This document shows positions 17,901-60,077 of a stretch of 64,000 nt of DNA, in pieces; the stretch's first letter is position 1, and every line of letters begins with the position of its first letter. The position numbers and the translations under genes were made by a program. The stretch is from Sphagnum compactum (taxonomy: Eukaryota), in the NCBI GenBank assembly GCA_965153455.1, contig OZ234494.1, positions 5,456,001-5,520,000 of the forward strand, given 5' to 3'. Below the pieces are notes generated by a model. That model ran no database searches. It had not been told where the DNA came from and saw nothing but the letters and a program-made list of their open reading frames with translations.

Positions 17901-19577
17901 TTATTTATTTTTAATTGACTCCAGGAAATGGGTGTTAATTATTTTTTAATACGAGTGCCTAATTTTATCATCATGATCTCGTACGTTGTAGAAAACAAAT
18001 TCTCTTGACACTGAGTGTTAGAATTAAGATTAATCAGAGGACATGCAAAAAGTTTGCTCATCAGACGGCTCAGTAACAGTATCAGAATGCTCAATATTCC
18101 ACGTCCAGTTGCAGCCTAACGTTCTCCTCTTGATGACAAAAAAATTTCAGTTCCAAAATATCACTCACTAGCTCTGCATATCTAGGATTGCATGTATGCC
18201 TTTTCAGATCACCTGTGCTACGTCCCCATAGATAATCAATTGGGTTTGAACCTTGAAATCAGAAGGTGGAATGTGATGATCTGTACAGCTGCACAGGTGA
18301 GTGAGAGCCATCACACAAGGCTGCAAATTCTCCTGCAAATTTCATCAGATTGATTGATTAGGGGACCTTAATCACGTGTGCACAGCAGCTGAGAAGCTCA
18401 TCATATCTGGAAAGTGCATGCACAGCAAAATGCACGTACAAACGCTTTCCACACGAGTTTCCAAGATAACTCCCAACAATTACTGCACACAAACTTCAAA
18501 AACGTCTTTGGACGTACTTGAAAGTTGAACTAGGAAGTTGAATCCATCAAATCGTGAATCCTATAACTTGTAACTACAGCTTCGAGTGCTGCAGGAGCTA
18601 GGAGTCATGGGTATTGTGATAAAATTGATGCCCCAGGTGGACGGACTTCTGCAAATCTAAACAATGCATGTAGTGGAACACAACTATAAGCATTTTATAT
18701 ATGTTCTTCTACACTCTACTAGTGTTGATGATGATAGCACAGTGCATTAGTGCCCTGGGGTTCAGAACATAAGAGACAGAGCCAGAGATGGTTCAGACCT
18801 GGTGGTTTTAATATTGTTCTGGATTGAAGTAGCTGCAGTTTCTTCATTACCCGGAAGAGAATTCAGAAATTTCAGATTCACGTGATGATACAGTTTCTCT
18901 AAGTTCTGAGCCTTTTGCAACCGTGACTGTGCAGTAAGCATCTCCATAATTAATTGCAGTCACTAGTAGAAAAGAGAATGGAATTGAGATCTGCATCTAG
19001 CTAGACCAGAATCATGACCAACGACAAGTTCAATATCACCATCATTTCACACGGCAAAATTCAAAAACTATAGAGTCGGGGATTTGCATTACACCTGCAG
19101 TTGTAAGTCATGTGCTTTCTTGAGTTTCTTCTGCACATACTGAAGATGAAGAAACTGGAAAGCTACTGTGGTGCGAGAGTCAAGATGAATCAGCTGCTGC
19201 TGGGAACTCTGATCACACACTTATTACAAATTCCTGAGCTGCAGACCCAAGTCAAAGTTTCTGTCCAGAGCAAATGTCAATCATCTTCTAGCTAGTAGCT
19301 AGCTAGATAAAGGTCTGATGAAACATTCACCTCTCAGCTGGTTAACTCTTCCCTAGCCCTTGGAGATCGTTCTGAAACCGACCCACAGCACTCCCAGGGA
19401 ACCTACTTATTGCAAATGTTTTTTCTGTGTTTTTCTTCAGATTTTCCAACCGGCATTAGTCATGACACGAATTCCTCAAGATATGGATCTTTCCAGAACC
19501 CACTTCCGGAAATCCATCATTGCAGCGAATGGGTACTTCTTCGCATCATGAACTATGGCATACACTTTGGGGTTGGA

Positions 19578-22500
19578 TCACGCATTCCCGTTGTTGCTGG
19601 GACCATCTCCATGTGGGCGCAGAGCTTCTCGATCTTGCAGCTGAATACACAGACCATAGACATGAATCATCAGCTCATGATCCCGAAACTTGAAAGACAT
19701 GAAGTGGAGAATCATGAATTGAAGCATGAGCATTCAGACCTGCAATATTGCATCAGCAATTCCAGCTTCAACAGCGCCATTTGCTCCTTGTGCAACGCCC
19801 AGAGTTTCCGCATCTGTCCACACCAAAACACATAGAAGATGTGAGCAAAAGAAGTTCCTGATCATCTGCACTCAGTTGCACAGCTGTGAATCTGACATGT
19901 TTAGCTGCTGGTGTATTACATAGAGAAGCTCATCATGGAACCACCCACAAGCTGAAGACATGATTGTCATCTGCAAGGGCCTCCTGCGCTAGGAGCTGCA
20001 GCTTGAACATACAATACAACCACTGGGGTTTGAAGGAAGAAATGTAGTTACCAATGGCAGTTTGCTGTGCAGTAGTGGGCAGCATACGCACAACACGAGT
20101 GTCAAGGATATCTTGAGCTACATGCACGTTGTTTTCAGCCATAGCCTTGTGGTAAACCGCACTGCACAAATCAATAAATCCAGAAATTGAAGCATCAAGA
20201 AGCTGCAGCATCTGGCTTAATACTACTAGGGTTTGAATCTGAGAGATTCAGATTCCACAGAAAATGCATGTGAGTTCACAACAAAGGTTCTCAAAGATTC
20301 TCATGAGGAAAATGATTGATGGGATCTTAGATTCGTATACCTGGCTGCTTCTTCTTCTGTGGCATACATGCCAGTGTACTGAACGTAGGGACTGCAAAAA
20401 AAGATGGAGATCAAGCTGAGACTTAGTCGTGACAGTACTCATTGGACTTTGCACAGCAGCAAGCTTGCAGCTTGCAGCATGCATTTGTGTGACCATGGAG
20501 ATCAGCATTTAATGATGATCAATAGTTCAGGGATGGAGTTGTTGGAATTATTCTTACCAATAGCCTCCAATTCCCCAACGATAACCCTTTTTGTAATGGG
20601 CTGCAAAGGTCCCATTTTCCATCTTTGTCACAAACGGGTATTTCAACACCGCACCAGCTGGTCCATCACTGTCTCGCTGCAGGAACTTCAGCATCTGGTT
20701 CTTGGTGAGATGCCTCAGCTGCAAAAAAACATTGTGCAAACCATTACCACGCAGAAACCTCAATCACAAAGCACCCATCTTCTTACAACCCCTAGAAAAC
20801 TCCAGACGCAGCATAACTTATGACATCTAGGGATCAATCGGAGAGAATGGTGGAGGATGGGTCTGACTTACCCTTGCAAGTCCAGCTTCGTACTGCTCGG
20901 CGGGTTTGAAATTGATTTTGTGCAGAAACTCTTGCACATTCAGCGCAAGAACTGCTCGATCAAAAGTCCTACAATGAATATCACCCAAGAATTCAGAAAT
21001 CACTCCAGACTTCAACTGCATTTTCAGTAATCATCAGGTGATGCTGCAACTTCCAGGTTTTGAACGAAGACCGTAGTCAAGCAGAAACAAGTACATAATA
21101 CATTCCAGCTTGAGCACATCAGGATGCATGCAGCAGCAACAGACCTATACTAAAAGAACCTGGACATTGCAAACATATAGAGCTCAGGGGTATACCTTGC
21201 AGCCTCTTCTTGAGTAGGGTATGAACCTATGTTCCAAGACAAAGCACAAAAGTCAACAGAGGATTTCACAGACAGTTAGACTTGCATTGTAGTGCAAGAA
21301 AATGTCCGGCCTCATGCATACTCAAATAGAACTCTCAATTGCAAAACATAGTTTTCTATGGCATTCTCAAACTGGAGTGAAGCAAGTCTTGAGCATGTAA
21401 GGGTGGATGGAGTATAAGAACAACTACCGAAATGCCGTTCAACTCCGCAATCCCTGCAACCACAAAACACACATGGGATTAGGTTTGGAATCATAATAGA
21501 ATCATGGTTACAGCTTCTCTACTGCATTATGAATGTCATGCAAGAAAACAAACTGTTCAGCAACACAGGATTGGAGAGTCTGTGGAGAGCTCACCAGAAA
21601 CGGGTTTCCCACCGACCAGTGTGCCGGTTGTAGACAACCCCTTGATATTGAGAGGTTACTGGCGGAAAACGTCGACGTCTCCTTGACTGCGATCTGCCGG
21701 CTTCGGCCGAATGTGCTCTGTTGATTGGGTTGATGACATTCCCAGCGACTCCTTGGGGGCATCGTCGTCGTCGTCTCCTTGCGTGTCTGCCGGTCGCGGG
21801 AGCTGCTCTGTTTGGGTGGTTGACATTAGTACCTGCAATGGCGACGGCTTCTGCAAGAACCGGCAGAACTGCTTCTTCCTCGTTCATGATCTCCTCCATG
21901 GGCGCATCGTCTAGGTCGTTATCCGGCAACTGCTGTTGCTGCTCCTCAGAGGCATTTTCAACAAGAGGCAACTGCACATCATGAGTACTCTGATCGACTC
22001 CATCACCTTTTTCTTCTTCTTGCACCGTGATGGTCAGGTGGAGCTGAAGTGCCAGAGTTTCATCAATATCGCCACCAGGTTTAGCTCTGTCAAGAACTTT
22101 TTCACAAGTTGCTGCTGCCATTGCAACTCGAGTTGGATGCACTTCAGGAGCGGGGACTAGATCGACATTGCCGGGGCTTGCAAGCTTGTACCTCGGAACG
22201 TGGAATCTCGACTTCTTGGAGGCAGGAGGATAGTGCTCCTTCTCATGTGGAGAGCTTGGCACCCAGTGCATGGGTACGCCCCATGCAAAACTCGGCAGCT
22301 CGTTGCTTCCAGGAAGATGCAGAAAAGTTCCATGAGGAGGAGGAGGAGGTAGTGCCGCCAATGCTTGGACAATATGAAGCCATCCGAGCTCCGCCGGCAG
22401 CTCTGGCCTCTCTACTGGGACCTCGCCCATGGGTGGCGGTGGCAGGGGGATGTAGATTTCTACCGGCGGAATTGCAAGAGTCCGAGCTGCTGCTGAGACC

Positions 22501-22598
22501 ACTGGAGGAGGAGGGTTCTGGTCCTCTGCGGCTTCTACCTGCACCTCCTCATCAGCGGCTGCTGCTAAAGGAAGCTTGTTCAGGTTGAAGTGAGCCAT
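19578..22598 (-). CDS. Divergent euAP2-lineage (APETALA2-like) double-AP2-domain transcription factor, 9 coding exons: 22598-21595, 21453-21428, 21226-21196, 20968-20872, 20718-20558, 20391-20341, 20161-20052, 19813-19740, 19640-19578 (1617 nt, 538 aa)
   Basis: All introns are GT..AG and phases join in frame. R1 reads SQYQGVVYNRHTGRWETRFW|DCGVERHFG|SYPTQEEAAR|TFDRAVLALNVQEFLHKINF, against recalled AP2 [57 protein letters not shown]. Exon sizes of 26 and 31 nt match euAP2 genes. Linker LRHLTKNQMLKFLQRDSDG resembles MTNLTKEEFVHVLRRQSTG. The last two exons are less certain but are conserved in frame in the paralogue. Confidence 0.88.
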
Positions 22599-25500
22599 CT
22601 TTTTTCTTGTTGGATAGGAACTTGACAACGATGAGATGAGCACGAAAATCCACGGATAAAACTAGTAGAGAAGGAAGCTGCAAATCGTTCAGAAGCGAAG
22701 TTGGATATCTATCTTGTGAAAACCCAAAGAAAGTACAAGCTCGAGAGAAACTTTGCAAAGCTATGAACGATCAGAAACTGATGCTCATGAAACCAAAAGA
22801 AAATTCTAGCTTGACAAACTTTGCAAAAATACTAAACCAAGAACGATCAGAAAGGAAGATTGGGAAACACAAGCAAAGGAGGTAAGTCTAGCGTCTAGAG
22901 TTGTAAGGAAAGAAATAAGATCTGCGAACAATAAACAAACAAAAGGAGTAAAGAGCGAAAGAGAGAGAGAGAGAGAGACAGAGGAAGCACAAGCAAAGGA
23001 GGCAAGAGCGAAAGACAAGGAGGGAAGGAAGAAAGATCGGCAAACAAACGAAGGAGTGAAGAGCGCGAGAGAGAGAGAGAGAGAAAAGGAAGTTAAGGAA
23101 GCACAATAGCAAGGAAACGAAGAACCCTGTGTTTCCTAAATAATTAGGTGATGAACAACATTTCCAAAATGTTCCCAATTTCTTTGTCCAAAAATGACAA
23201 AATTTGTCAAACCATAAAAGCACTGCTCATCAGCATTCTTTTTTTGGTTTTTTTTGTTTTTTTTGTATCCTGCTGATGTCAACAGGAAACATGGGATTTT
23301 ATTTTTTTGGTCAACTTTCTGAGGTTTTTTTTTTTTCTGAAAATTTTTCACCACATTTTGACTGAGTCTTTAATGAATTGGGGAATTTCGATCATCAATT
23401 TTTACTATTTTGGTTCTAAATCTTTTGTGAGATGTGCACTAGTAAGTGATGCTAGTAGTGTTTTTTATTTTCAAGTTTGTGATCCACAAGGAGATTTAAC
23501 CACATTTGGATATAAACCAACTATCAGACTTGTAGAAAATGTATTAAAAAAAATTTATATACTAGCTACTCAAGCTTGAACAATGTGTAGATTCAACATG
23601 GCAATTTTTTAGAATCTTTTTTTATTTCTGGATTTTTTTAAAAGAGAATATTCAACAAAACAAATTTGCCAAATGATGAAAAGTCTCACGAAAAAAAACA
23701 TTGGATGCTACACCATAAGTCTGAAATGAAAAAACATTTTTCATCAGAGTGTGTAATCAGCATAACCATTTTGGCAAATGGATTTATAACCACCAACTAA
23801 ATCTTTAAACCACAAAGTTAATCTTGAAACTTAAACCCTAATGTCAAAACCTAAATGACAAGGACTAGAATAAAAGATTTTTTATCTATGAAACTTCTAA
23901 TGCCATGAAAATAGGAAGCAAGGTCCATGGAAGTGAATAGAGTTGGATTATGATTGCATATATTTCTAACAATTTAGTATTGGAACAATTTCTTTGATTT
24001 TTAATTCTCAAACATTCTAATTATCATCAAGATCACATTTAAAAGGTTTGATTTCATACTAATCATATATCACTGTCCATCATAAACCAAAATTTCAAAA
24101 CTCACACAAGATCCTTTTTATGGATACTTTAATGTCGTCACTATAAGAATGAACCAATCTTGGGTGGGTAATTGTTTTACCTACGTATACCCATGAATAT
24201 ATTGTGGAAAATACATATTACCCTGCCCAGCTGGTAATTTTTTGTTACCCTTTTAATCAACCTATCCAACTCCTAAACGTTTCAAAATTGATTAAACCTT
24301 TTCTTTTTAGTATATATTTGAGGTTTAGCCCTAAATTCCAAGGGAGGGTAATTGTTTTGAAGTGGGTAAAAGGATGGTATATGCCAAAATCATTCTACAA
24401 CATATTGTATGCATTTCCATGTTTTGCAATGCATGTGACTATGATAGACCTCTAAAATTATGCTGAATAATGGTTGAACATGTTTTTTTTTTGACCTTTT
24501 ATTTATGTTTGTAACATTAATTACCATGAACAATTTTTTTTACCATATGCTCTTGAAATACCTTTAGATTTTATTGTGTGATTTTCCATCATAAGCATTC
24601 TTTTAATGTATTCTTGAGGCTATTGACTAGTTTGATGTTATTTTTTTAATTTTCTGTTATTATAAAATGTTTGAAATTTCAGAGGTCCCTGGTTGTCGAG
24701 GAAATTGCTAAAGTAATTGTCTTTCTCCACTTCAAAAATGTGCCAGAATTTTGTAAATAGTTTCATTTACCCTACATATTTTACACACTTATATCCACAT
24801 CAGATGTAAAGGGTAAATGATGAATATTTTTCCTTCCTCTGCCCTTGTGAAAAGGGTAAATGATCTTCATTTACTATTGACACTATCTGAAACAACAATT
24901 TTGCAAAGCTTAATACCCTCACCTTTACCCAGTTTGGAAAATTCAAGCCTACATGTGCCTTCATAAAGTTGATATTAAAAATTTTATATTTACCCTTACC
25001 TAGCTAATATACTAAAATATACCCACCCAAGACTAGAGCTAACCTTCTAAGTGAGTTTTAGAGTTGGATTGGGATTGGATAGATTTTTAATTAACAAACT
25101 AGCACTCTAACATTTATCTTCTTACAGTTTGTCTCAAAAAAAATTTGTTGTTTTCTTTTTAACTTTCTAAATTATGATCATGGTCACATTTAAAGGAGTT
25201 GGATTGTGAAGCAATCACATCCCACCCTCTCATCTAGACCTAAATCACAATGCTCACACAAGATTTTCTCTGGTGCCTATTTTAATTTTATCACTATGGC
25301 AATTAACATTGTAAGTGAAGTTTGATTAGATTAGAGTTGGATAGATTTCTAGGAAACCTGCACTCTTACATCTCTCTTTTCTTATATTTCTTGGTTGTTC
25401 TTCTTGAGAAACTTTTGTAATGGTTAACAATAGACTTTTTTCATGGGGACCATTTTGACCTAGTTTGCAACTTGGTGAGTATTAGCATTAGTAAAACAAT

Positions 25501-59154: not shown

Positions 59155-59555
59155 GGGTGGATGTAGGCAACCAACCAGCCACAGTATTGTACACACCTTC
59201 TTTTTCCAGTAACTTATTTGGGCTGTTTGAACATGAGATTCAGAAGCCACAACAAACATACTTGAGGGGTGTATATCTTATATCAACTCATGTCAAGATT
59301 AATAAGAGTGTCAAGATTTTGACGGATTGTTCAAGTGGGTCTGAGATAAATGAACTCAAATTGAACAACATATTTTGCTCTCAAGTGGTCAGCTCATATT
59401 TCCCAGATTTTGAGACATTGAGACTAGCTGAATTCACCAAGTCCTCTGACAGGCATTGATCATCTCTCTCTCTCTCTCTCTGTGTCCCTGTGGTCAGACT
59501 GTCTGTGTATGCATACAAGGCTTGAGCATTGAGCCCATTCAGTTAGTTGCTCTTC

Positions 59556-60077
59556 ATGGCTGCTGCTGGTCACCTGTTTCGTTATGCACAGAAGAAGAGG
59601 AGAATATTAAACTTGGATAGAACAAGACTATGGTATGCACTTATGGTGACAATTTTTGTACTGGGAACAGCTGGGCGAGTGACATCCGAAGCGATGGTGG
59701 ACATCATCAACTACTGTGGAGAGCCGATTTCTGTGCACTGCAAATCTCACGACTCAGATCTGGGTAGGATCATGATCGATATAAGCGAGGATTTCATGTT
59801 CAAGTTCACATCCAACATCTTTGGAACGACATTGTTCTGGTGTTCATTCGAGTGGGGAATCGAGACACAGTACTTCCCTGTATGGGAAGGTTCCAACTAC
59901 GTCGATCGTCCCCCTTGCGCACCAACGGGCACTTGTCTCTATAAAGTTGCTCCTGATGGATTCTATTGGGCAACTTCTCAAAAAGCCCAAGGCAATTCGT
60001 TTTGGACATTTTACAAAAAATGGTCAACGTATGTACATGTGGAACAAATTTGGAATTCCCCGCCTCCCCCAATTTGA
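59556..60077 (+). CDS. Plant self-incompatibility S1 family / S-protein homologue (SPH), secreted or signal-anchored Cys-containing protein, 173 aa
   Basis: VDIINYCGEPISVHCKSHDSDLG...FMFKFTSNIFGTTLFWCSFEW...C..C.YKVAPDGFY matches the SPH consensus (HCKSxDxDLG, FxF..N.FGTTLFWC, DGxY). Hydrophobic segment LWYALMVTIFVLGTAG precedes the domain. ATG is at 59556; the ORF-track start at 59547 is TTG. Confidence 0.9.
   Translation: MAAAGHLFRYAQKKRRILNLDRTRLWYALMVTIFVLGTAGRVTSEAMVDIINYCGEPISVHCKSHDSDLGRIMIDISEDFMFKFTSNIFGTTLFWCSFEWGIETQYFPVWEGSNYVDRPPCAPTGTCLYKVAPDGFYWATSQKAQGNSFWTFYKKWSTYVHVEQIWNSPPPPI

Follow-up and report, generated by a model that had tools for sequence, protein, structure and literature searches.

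A nine-exon Sphagnum gene with two AP2 repeats, the second strongly degenerate

Structure and transcripts of the gene

The stretch of DNA analyzed here, in the following termed the window, comprises 64,000 nucleotides (nt) of the peat moss Sphagnum compactum (assembly GCA_965153455.1, contig OZ234494.1, positions 5,456,001 to 5,520,000), with its first nucleotide counted as position 1. On its minus strand it harbors a gene of nine exons that encodes two AP2 repeats, R1 and R2, joined by a linker. The coding sequence (CDS) extends from 19578 to 22598, and joining the exons by their coordinates yields a spliced translation of 538 residues. All eight introns are of the GT-AG type, and one open frame is kept across the nine exons. 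The gene lies in a plant-like window with a G+C content of about 29-46%. An earlier note on this DNA had placed a euAP2 gene with rewritten DNA-contact motifs at 20052-21660 without giving a strand. The exons named there are real, lie on the minus strand, have AG/GT borders and maintain the frame. The interval itself covers the two-repeat core and thus only part of the gene, since exon 1 extends to 22598 and exons 8 and 9 lie beyond it. The features of the gene, listed from its 5′-end, are as follows.

22599..22948, minus strand: 5′ untranslated region (UTR), minimum extent; an RNA contig of run X18 extends to 22948, upstream of the ATG
21595..22598, minus strand: exon 1, 1004 nt, with the ATG at 22598; junction 21595|21453 in RNA contigs
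22569..22586, minus strand: EAR-like motif NLNKLP, residues 5-10, which fits [D/N]LNxxP
21762..21779, minus strand: first arginine run, residues 274-279, resembling a nuclear localization signal
21669..21683, minus strand: second arginine run, residues 306-310, directly N-terminal of R1; aligned with a basic stretch of an Acorus AP2 protein
20908..21653, minus strand: repeat R1, residues 316-374, exons 1-4; from the euAP2 R1 hidden Markov model (HMM)
21428..21453, minus strand: exon 2, microexon of 26 nt, DCGVERHF; both junctions in X18 and X19 contigs
21196..21226, minus strand: exon 3, microexon of 31 nt, GSYPTQEEAA; both junctions in X18 and X19 contigs
21160..21195, minus strand: 36 nt of intron 3 that are coding in five of five public Sphagnum models; RNA contigs use the upstream donor
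20872..20968, minus strand: exon 4, 97 nt, helix of R1 and beginning of the linker; from its borders and RNA contigs
20644..20907, minus strand: linker between R1 and R2, residues 375-411, interrupted by intron 4; aligns to the WRI1 and euAP2 linkers
20558..20718, minus strand: exon 5, 161 nt, linker, strands 1 and 2 of R2 and an inserted aromatic/glycine loop; from its borders and RNA contigs
20095..20643, minus strand: repeat R2, residues 412-479, exons 5-7, degenerate; from the collinear HMM
20341..20391, minus strand: exon 6, 51 nt, strand 3 and beginning of the helix of R2; corresponds to the sixth exon of euAP2 genes, which has 45 nt and can be skipped
20052..20161, minus strand: exon 7, 110 nt, R2 helix and the residues after it; from its borders and RNA contigs
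19740..19813, minus strand: exon 8, 74 nt; junctions 20052|19813 and 19740|19640 in RNA contigs, frame kept
19578..19640, minus strand: coding part of exon 9 with the TGA stop codon; from the spliced translation
19075..19577, minus strand: 3′-UTR, minimum extent; the X18 RNA contig extends to 19075

Exon 1 encodes a proline/alanine-rich N-terminal region, both arginine runs and the initial 20 residues of R1, and ends in phase 2, splitting a tryptophan codon. The residue changes listed in the earlier note are all present in the spliced translation, namely YQG, VERHFG and RTFD in R1, as well as YPF, GTFAAH, the GYRWGIGGYCPY loop and AASAVY in R2.

Four RNA runs were mapped to positions 19000-23000 of the window; the public runs with a matching stretch are moss samples. 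All eight junctions were recovered exactly in RNA contigs of the metatranscriptome runs X18 and X19, so that every predicted exon, including both microexons, is part of these transcripts. Run X18 yielded one contig of 2512 nt at a depth of 20, and the depths of the RNA contigs range from 20 to 33. The junctions have CT..AC ends on the plus strand, corresponding to GT..AG for the gene. Run X20 gave one junction together with unspliced pieces. The X18 and X19 contigs are about 96-97% identical to the window; as they differ by about 3-4%, their source is a close relative, not the organism of the window itself. A GA/AG-rich simple repeat at about 22949-23000, immediately upstream of the mapped 5′-end, was skipped as a repeat in the read mapping.

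The gene is present in public annotations as 'unnamed protein product' in S. jensenii (two proteins), S. balticum, S. compactum and S. troendelagicum (P0147, P0148, P0150, P0153 and P0154), and one of these proteins has been named automatically 'AP2/ERF domain-containing protein' in UniRef. All five models extend the 31-nt exon by 36 nt by means of a downstream GT, which adds 12 residues to R1, whereas the RNA contigs use the donor 36 nt upstream of the one in the public models. The form of R1 that is longer by 12 residues may represent a minor isoform. Moreover, the model of P0147 leaves out exon 6, and that of P0153 connects exon 5 directly with exon 9, which breaks the frame. The expectation that automated annotation would miss the microexons therefore holds in part: the 31-nt exon is mis-called in all five models and later exons are mis-joined in two, but the 26-nt exon is correct in each of them. 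P0153, the S. compactum protein, equals the window protein over residues 1-354 and 355-440. P0154 without its 12 extra residues differs at 10 of 538 positions from the model for L001, one of the metagenome loci compared below.

The two repeats and the linker

HMMs of R1, of the linker, of R2 and of the collinear arrangement R1-linker-R2 were built from 116 of 119 named angiosperm euAP2 proteins (P0022-P0140), which we reached via P0013, one match of a search with the tail of exon 1. R1 scored 50.6 bits against the euAP2 R1 model, compared with a maximum of 7.9 bits in 5000 shuffles, and carries the euAP2 consensus residue at 27 of 57 positions. With the same HMMs the scores are about 141-143 bits for canonical euAP2 repeats and 18-64 bits for AP2 domains of algae or protists; on this scale R1 is an ordinary distant AP2 domain. 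The linker alone yielded 6.1 bits (shuffle maximum 6.3), and R2 alone 5.6 bits, with agreement to the consensus at 20 of 50 positions. These values bear out the view that R2 is far more degraded than R1, and by its score R2 is more degraded than any AP2 domain in the comparison set.

The collinear model scored 74.8 bits on the whole spliced protein and at most 10.8 bits in 5000 shuffles. We further shuffled parts of the protein, with a real score of 79.1 bits as the reference. Shuffling R2 lowered the mean to 66.2 bits (maximum 74.1), shuffling the linker to 54.2 bits and shuffling both to 48.8 bits, and in none of these arrangements did any of 1000 partial shuffles match the real score. R2 thus contributes about 13 bits in the collinear model, and by the partial-shuffle scores both the linker and R2 genuinely take part in the collinear match. 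The collinear match and the spliced translation likewise uphold the description of the locus as a double-AP2 gene with a euAP2-like exon layout and rewritten contact motifs. Taking two AP2 repeats and a conserved linker of about 25-35 residues as the mark of the double-AP2 (AP2-like) subfamily, the protein is, as judged from its sequence, a member with a strongly degenerate R2.

Pairwise searches gave a corresponding picture. The exon 1 tail (34 residues) matches WRI1 (PDB 7wq5) with E=0.0011, and its last 30 residues retrieved 18 proteins at E<=0.001 from a library of 1.84 billion proteins. Apart from the gene itself there were 17 such matches; PF00847 was detected in 14 of these at E<=0.001, and 13 exceed its cut-off. 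BLASTP against an Acorus AP2 protein yielded E=1e-15 over 173 collinear residues, reaching from the basic run to the R2 helix, and an annotated Sphagnum protein aligned with WRI1 7wq5 over R1 and the linker (E=1.5e-7). In searches of the protein collection, exon 1 retrieved only four unspliced open reading frames (ORFs), and a profile of exon 5 found no protein at E<=10 among the longer proteins, which we rate as weak evidence. As far as these searches reach, the gene is lineage-restricted, as the earlier note had proposed. A six-frame scan of the window with the R1 and R2 HMMs revealed no second AP2 gene. Among protein-atlas look-alikes of R2, the top cluster contained PF00847 in 33% of its members (score 0.91); this value lies within the range of shuffled proteins, and the cluster was set aside as a lead only.

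The fold was modelled with AlphaFold2 on the stored protein P0154, whose R2 differs from that of the window at three residues. With an alignment of five Sphagnum and 82 euAP2 proteins, both repeats were modelled as three strands and a helix. In this euAP2-guided model the predicted local distance difference test (pLDDT) amounts to 75-93 for R1 and 76-91 for R2, with about 51 at the inserted hairpin. The structure prediction suggested in the earlier note hence returned AP2 topology in both repeats, but with confidence only under the euAP2-guided alignment. Because canonical sequences dominate this alignment, the resulting fold is not independent evidence. Using the euAP2-guided model, the top Foldseek match was WRI1 with DNA (E=1.1e-6, 175 columns). 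Superposition of the model on WRI1 gave Z 7.1 and a root-mean-square deviation (rmsd) of 10.4 over 112 aligned residues; that of the modelled R2 gave Z 7.4 and rmsd 3.9 over 64 aligned residues with the TEM1 AP2 domain, and Z 6.7 and rmsd 3.2 over 63 of 63 with AtERF1.

Near-neutral amino-acid change and a protected reading frame

Seven copies of the gene were compared, that of the window and those at six metagenome loci (L001-L006), which share about 95% DNA identity over 4 kb and fall into two groups, L001/L002 and L003-L006. Each of the seven retains an intact ORF of 538 or 542 residues and the full set of 16 splice sites. All three exon indels (3, 12 and 3 nt) are in frame, compared with two of ten intron indels. 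Correspondingly, 1632 exon columns contain no frameshifting indel and 1413 intron columns contain eight; at the intron rate 9.2 would be expected in the exons (Poisson P about 1e-4), with the caveat that the intron rate may overstate the neutral rate for exons. With about 91 substitutions, the probability that neutral change leaves the frame without a premature stop is 0.03. In addition, exon GC amounts to 53% and intron GC to 42%. Length variation of 3 nt, in frame, occurs among the copies at the first arginine run (residues 274-279). In exon 5 of L003 (7880-8052) and likewise in L004-L006, an in-frame insertion of 12 nt repeats the neighboring codons for RDS (RDSVRDSD) and resembles a short tandem duplication within the linker.

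The amino-acid sequence itself changes rapidly, in line with the fast evolution claimed in the earlier note. Among the Sphagnum copies the ratio of nonsynonymous to synonymous substitution rates (dN/dS) is about 1, and the root-to-tip distance is about twice that of angiosperm euAP2. In a small tree rooted with an alga, which included 20 of the 119 angiosperm euAP2 proteins chosen for taxonomic spread, this distance is 2.14-2.29 substitutions per site for Sphagnum and 0.94-1.02 for angiosperm euAP2. For R1-R2 the dN/dS ranges from 0.63 to 2.29, based on few sites. The R1 helix is invariant among the Sphagnum copies.

With a probability of roughly 60%, we read the locus as a real, transcribed nine-exon Sphagnum gene of double-AP2 descent and euAP2-type build, whose product is a nuclear regulator without the usual two-repeat DNA recognition. 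This build consists of an EAR-like start and a lengthy disordered region, followed by the arginine runs, R1, the conserved linker and R2; both microexons and the short sixth exon are part of it, whereas the ANT-type insertion and a 9-nt exon are lacking. The arginine runs at residues 274-279 and 306-310, together with the EAR-like start, suggest a nuclear regulator, and this start would fit a role as repressor or recruiter of co-repressors. R1 appears to keep the fold and some contact residues, so that DNA contact with a changed preference is possible. R2 is predicted to keep an AP2-like shape, and every canonical arginine, tryptophan and glutamate of its sheet, residues of the kind that contact DNA in the AtERF1-DNA structure, is replaced; moreover, a longer hairpin is inserted. 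Given these replacements and the inserted hairpin, R2 has in all likelihood stopped recognizing DNA and would probably act as a scaffold or as a surface for contacts with other proteins. Judged by the residues, these changes would be compatible with the altered or lost specificity for DNA put forward in the earlier note.

Several observations weigh against this reading. Taken alone, the score of R2 remains within the shuffle range (maximum 11.3 bits). PF00847 yielded 13.6-18.1 bits (E 0.003-0.08) on the five annotated Sphagnum proteins, with a cut-off of 33.3, and its match covers the R1 sheet only, with nothing in R2; the HMMER search proposed in the earlier note thus finds the R1 sheet below the threshold and does not see R2. 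These scores were taken on annotated forms with the mis-annotated 12-residue insertion in R1 and not on the RNA-supported splice form, and the wrong 31-nt microexon in all five public models probably pushes the AP2 match below the Pfam threshold. Pfam searches with single exon translations gave no match, nor did exon 5 against PDB sequences at E<=10. The RNA support consists of metatranscriptome contigs of a relative and not of the window's species, and the same-species polyA run X22 provided no reads in the approximately 12% of the run that was read, which we rate as no test. When only the five Sphagnum sequences were used for modelling, the same topology was obtained for both repeats with a pLDDT of about 43-56. 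The tree combined only euAP2, Sphagnum and one algal sequence. Furthermore, the four methods applied place the dN/dS of the complete CDS at 0.70-1.06 (counting methods) and at 0.98-2.03 (YN00 and maximum likelihood), and the divergence between the window and L001 is about 3.8% in exons and about 4.5% in introns; taken alone, this pattern resembles neutral drift. Finally, the variable R1 sites sit in strands expected to contact DNA, seven of the nine being located in strands 2 and 3.

The latter observations would also be accounted for by a relic under relaxed constraint, which is still transcribed and spliced but encodes a protein that is not selected, with the frame open as the copies are very close. 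A dN/dS close to 1 whatever the region or method, the near equality of exon and intron divergence, the loss of canonical contact residues and the ongoing change of β-sheet residues of R1 among species all fit this explanation; with a total divergence of only about 4-5%, few disabling mutations would be expected in any case. Nevertheless, we consider a relic rather unlikely. The exons lack the 9.2 frameshifting indels expected (P about 1e-4) and contain three indels that are all multiples of three, the frame without a stop has a probability of 0.03, and the 16 splice sites are kept in all seven copies. The difference between exon and intron GC (53% and 42%) and the RNA contig depth of 20-33 likewise argue against it.

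Alternatively, the turnover in the R1 sheet could reflect diversifying selection, that is, repeated change of DNA or partner specificity instead of drift. Between the window and L003, R1-R2 contains 20 non-synonymous and 4 synonymous changes (omega 1.4-2.3), the variable positions cluster in strands 2 and 3 (seven of nine) next to a constant helix, and the frame is protected. Since the counts are too small to depart from neutrality and the other two pairs show an omega of 0.6-1.0 for R1-R2, we regard this as quite improbable. The gene also offers a natural experiment on the decay or repurposing of a two-repeat DNA-binding module, in which one repeat keeps its identity and the other would keep its shape without any of the canonical contact residues.

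The ORFs flanking the gene contain no Pfam domain, and no neighboring segment is clearly more conserved; hence, the flanks offer no gene against which normal constraint could be gauged. An ORF of 176 residues at a distance of about 37 kb (59547-60074, plus strand) matches PF05938, 'Plant self-incompatibility protein S1' (E=4.3e-20, 72.6 bits, cut-off 24), and represents an S1/SPH-like gene. Antisense to the AP2-like gene, stop-free frames of 174, 144 and 167 residues are present on the plus strand at 19311-19835, 20389-20823 and 22085-22588, respectively, which probably follow from the coding strand's composition. The window contains no tRNA and no Rfam match.

Placement in the AP2 subfamily and comparison with known systems

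The ANT lineage is described by an insertion of 10 residues in R1 and of one residue in R2 (PMC6361745, PMC9880897). The Sphagnum R1 aligns to the euAP2 R1 model without an insertion of this type; the R2 criterion is not applicable, as the Sphagnum R2 carries a larger insertion. Moreover, WRI1/ANT genes are described as carrying a 9-nt exon that encodes VYL (PMC8831610, PMC9002759). In the Sphagnum gene the equivalent residues are encoded within the 26-nt exon and there is no 9-nt exon; VYL and the euANT1-4 motifs are absent from the protein. Thus, the gene shows none of the R1 insertion, the euANT1-4 motifs and the 9-nt VYL exon that point to the ANT lineage. The motif WDCG in R1 is common to all 82 aligned euAP2 proteins and is found neither in WRI1 nor in the alga. 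In a phmmer comparison with the same query, a crude proxy for placement, euAP2 proteins scored a median of 52.2 bits (range 43.3-61.4, n=119) and WRI1 33.9 bits.

At the N-terminus, NLNKLP fits [D/N]LNxxP in all seven copies, with a frequency of 0.00045 in 20000 shuffles. The N-terminal EAR motif of euAP2 is given as MW[D/N]LNxxP (PMC8136505), and the MW start is missing before NLNKLP. The euAP2 proteins fetched here begin with M[LF]DLNLN, with only one of 119 fitting the strict pattern, and the Sphagnum motif is therefore a resemblance rather than an identity. An LxLxL motif at residue 182 was dropped, as it is absent from the L003-L006 copies.

The exon layout was compared with that of euAP2 indirectly, via indels in euAP2 protein entries. 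Of 116 euAP2 entries, 31 lack exactly the 15 residues that align to Sphagnum exon 6, and insertions in three others fall at the E2|E3 and E4|E5 junctions. The 15-residue gap lies within R2, and many of the entries concerned are labelled isoform X2, so that R2-disrupting exon skipping is widely annotated in the family. The earlier note had set the exons against canonical sizes of 88, 146, 45 and 104 nt for the counterparts of exons 4, 5, 6 and 7, and of 26 and 31 nt for the microexons. A literature search found no description of AP2 exons of 26 bp or 31 bp, and one for exons of 51 bp, 9 bp or 74 bp turned up only the 9-bp exon of WRI1. The size of 45 nt agrees with the gap of 15 residues and with exon 6 of AtAP2, described as 45 bases in length (Wang 2016), and the other sizes found no such confirmation.

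In one further reading, which we hold tentatively and at less than even odds, the gene is the missing bryophyte member of euAP2, with a rewired R1, an R2 that is no longer a DNA reader and no miR172 site. With the same reserve, the lineage might then survive in Sphagnum in a form too diverged for similarity searches and Pfam thresholds. In terms of euAP2 membership, WDCG and the lack of the insertion, and possibly the euAP2-like exon layout, support what the earlier note had assumed, but the gene is only a candidate member of this clade, as the miR172 site is absent and some of these traits may be ancestral. A target site for miR172 after the domains is described as the mark of euAP2 (PMC6361745); we found no match with up to three mismatches in the whole window, and its footprint AASSGF is lacking in the 538-residue protein. 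No miR172 gene is reported for moss (PMC6676641), and the site is stated to be absent also from lycophyte euAP2 genes (PMC8136505).

These features may also belong to a gene outside euAP2, either of a separate bryophyte or pre-duplication AP2-like lineage or of ANT/WRI type without the insertion, with traits that are ancestral or convergent. The R1 insertion is absent from the algal AP2-like protein P0017 as well, which suggests that this trait may be ancestral, and the subfamily as a whole may have inherited some euAP2-like traits, such as the lack of the insertion and the exon positions, from its ancestor. The same explanation gains from the missing miR172 site, from the starts of the helices (T-Q/E-EEAA) and of the linker (PAEQY), which in the printed alignments are closer to WRI1 than to euAP2, and from two papers that record no AP2-group gene for mosses. 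We nonetheless find it doubtful, as WDCG is shared with euAP2 and not with WRI1 or the alga, the VYL-equivalent lies in a 26-nt exon in place of the 9-nt exon, the start is EAR-like and phmmer assigns more bits to euAP2 than to WRI1. The missing site also carries less weight in view of the lycophyte genes (PMC8136505).

One of the two papers searched Physcomitrella, OneKP bryophytes and Phytozome and found no euAP2/TOE3 homologue outside vascular plants (Zumajo-Cardona 2021); in the other, the AP2-group orthologue is given as not found in alga, moss or fern (Wang 2016). In a 2019 Brassica paper, an unrooted tree that contains no ANT genes sets unclassified moss AP2-type sequences apart as a clade of their own. 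For the moss Bryum argenteum, five genes in which one AP2 domain was detected are described as clustering with the Arabidopsis AP2 family (PMC6275083); by analogy, they could be additional cases from mosses in which the second repeat escapes detection. The literature found on euAP2 with bryophytes, Marchantia, moss or Sphagnum contains no account of the gene, and neither AP2 nor Sphagnum appears in a survey of bryophyte transcription factors. As published searches found no gene of the AP2 group in mosses, a transcribed euAP2-like moss gene is of note. The ANT phylogeny implies that the euAP2 lineage predates the split of mosses and vascular plants, and targeted searches found none of its members outside vascular plants. 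A transcribed moss gene of euAP2 build would render the age of this lineage directly testable, as well as its role before control by miR172 and before flowers.

Among known systems, the euAP2/TOE proteins of vascular plants (119 angiosperm proteins, e.g. P0080, 'Floral homeotic protein APETALA 2 [Acorus calamus]') share with the Sphagnum protein the order of EAR-like start, basic run, R1, linker and R2, the WDCG motif in R1 and the lack of the 10-residue insertion. As far as the indels in euAP2 entries show, exon junctions coincide at E2|E3, E4|E5, E5|E6 and E6|E7, and a short sixth exon is common to both. In contrast to the Sphagnum gene, the euAP2/TOE group has the miR172 site and the AASSGF footprint (the latter in 108 of 119 proteins), and canonical repeats score 143 bits for R1 and about 141 for R2, compared with 50.6 and 5.6 bits. 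The Sphagnum protein further differs by a 2-residue insertion in R1, about seven extra residues in the R2 hairpin and an N-terminal region unrelated to that of euAP2 proteins, and the gene comprises nine exons instead of the ten described for AtAP2 (Wang 2016). 

WRINKLED1 (PDB 7wq5), a double-AP2 protein of the basalANT lineage solved with DNA, is the only solved structure matched by sequence and the top fold match over both modelled repeats. Its linker and helix starts are similar, but it has extra R1 residues and the 9-bp VYL exon, neither of which is present in the Sphagnum gene. Damage to R2 is likewise known from euAP2 members: AtTOE2 is described as having lost the 45-nt exon 6 and SMZ and SNZ as having a changed R2 (Wang 2016), and in Arabidopsis TOE2, SMZ and SNZ as well as in euAP2 isoforms that skip exon 6 this repeat is damaged or partly missing. 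In these proteins R2 is shortened, whereas the Sphagnum R2 is of full length, even longer, with the conserved contact residues replaced.

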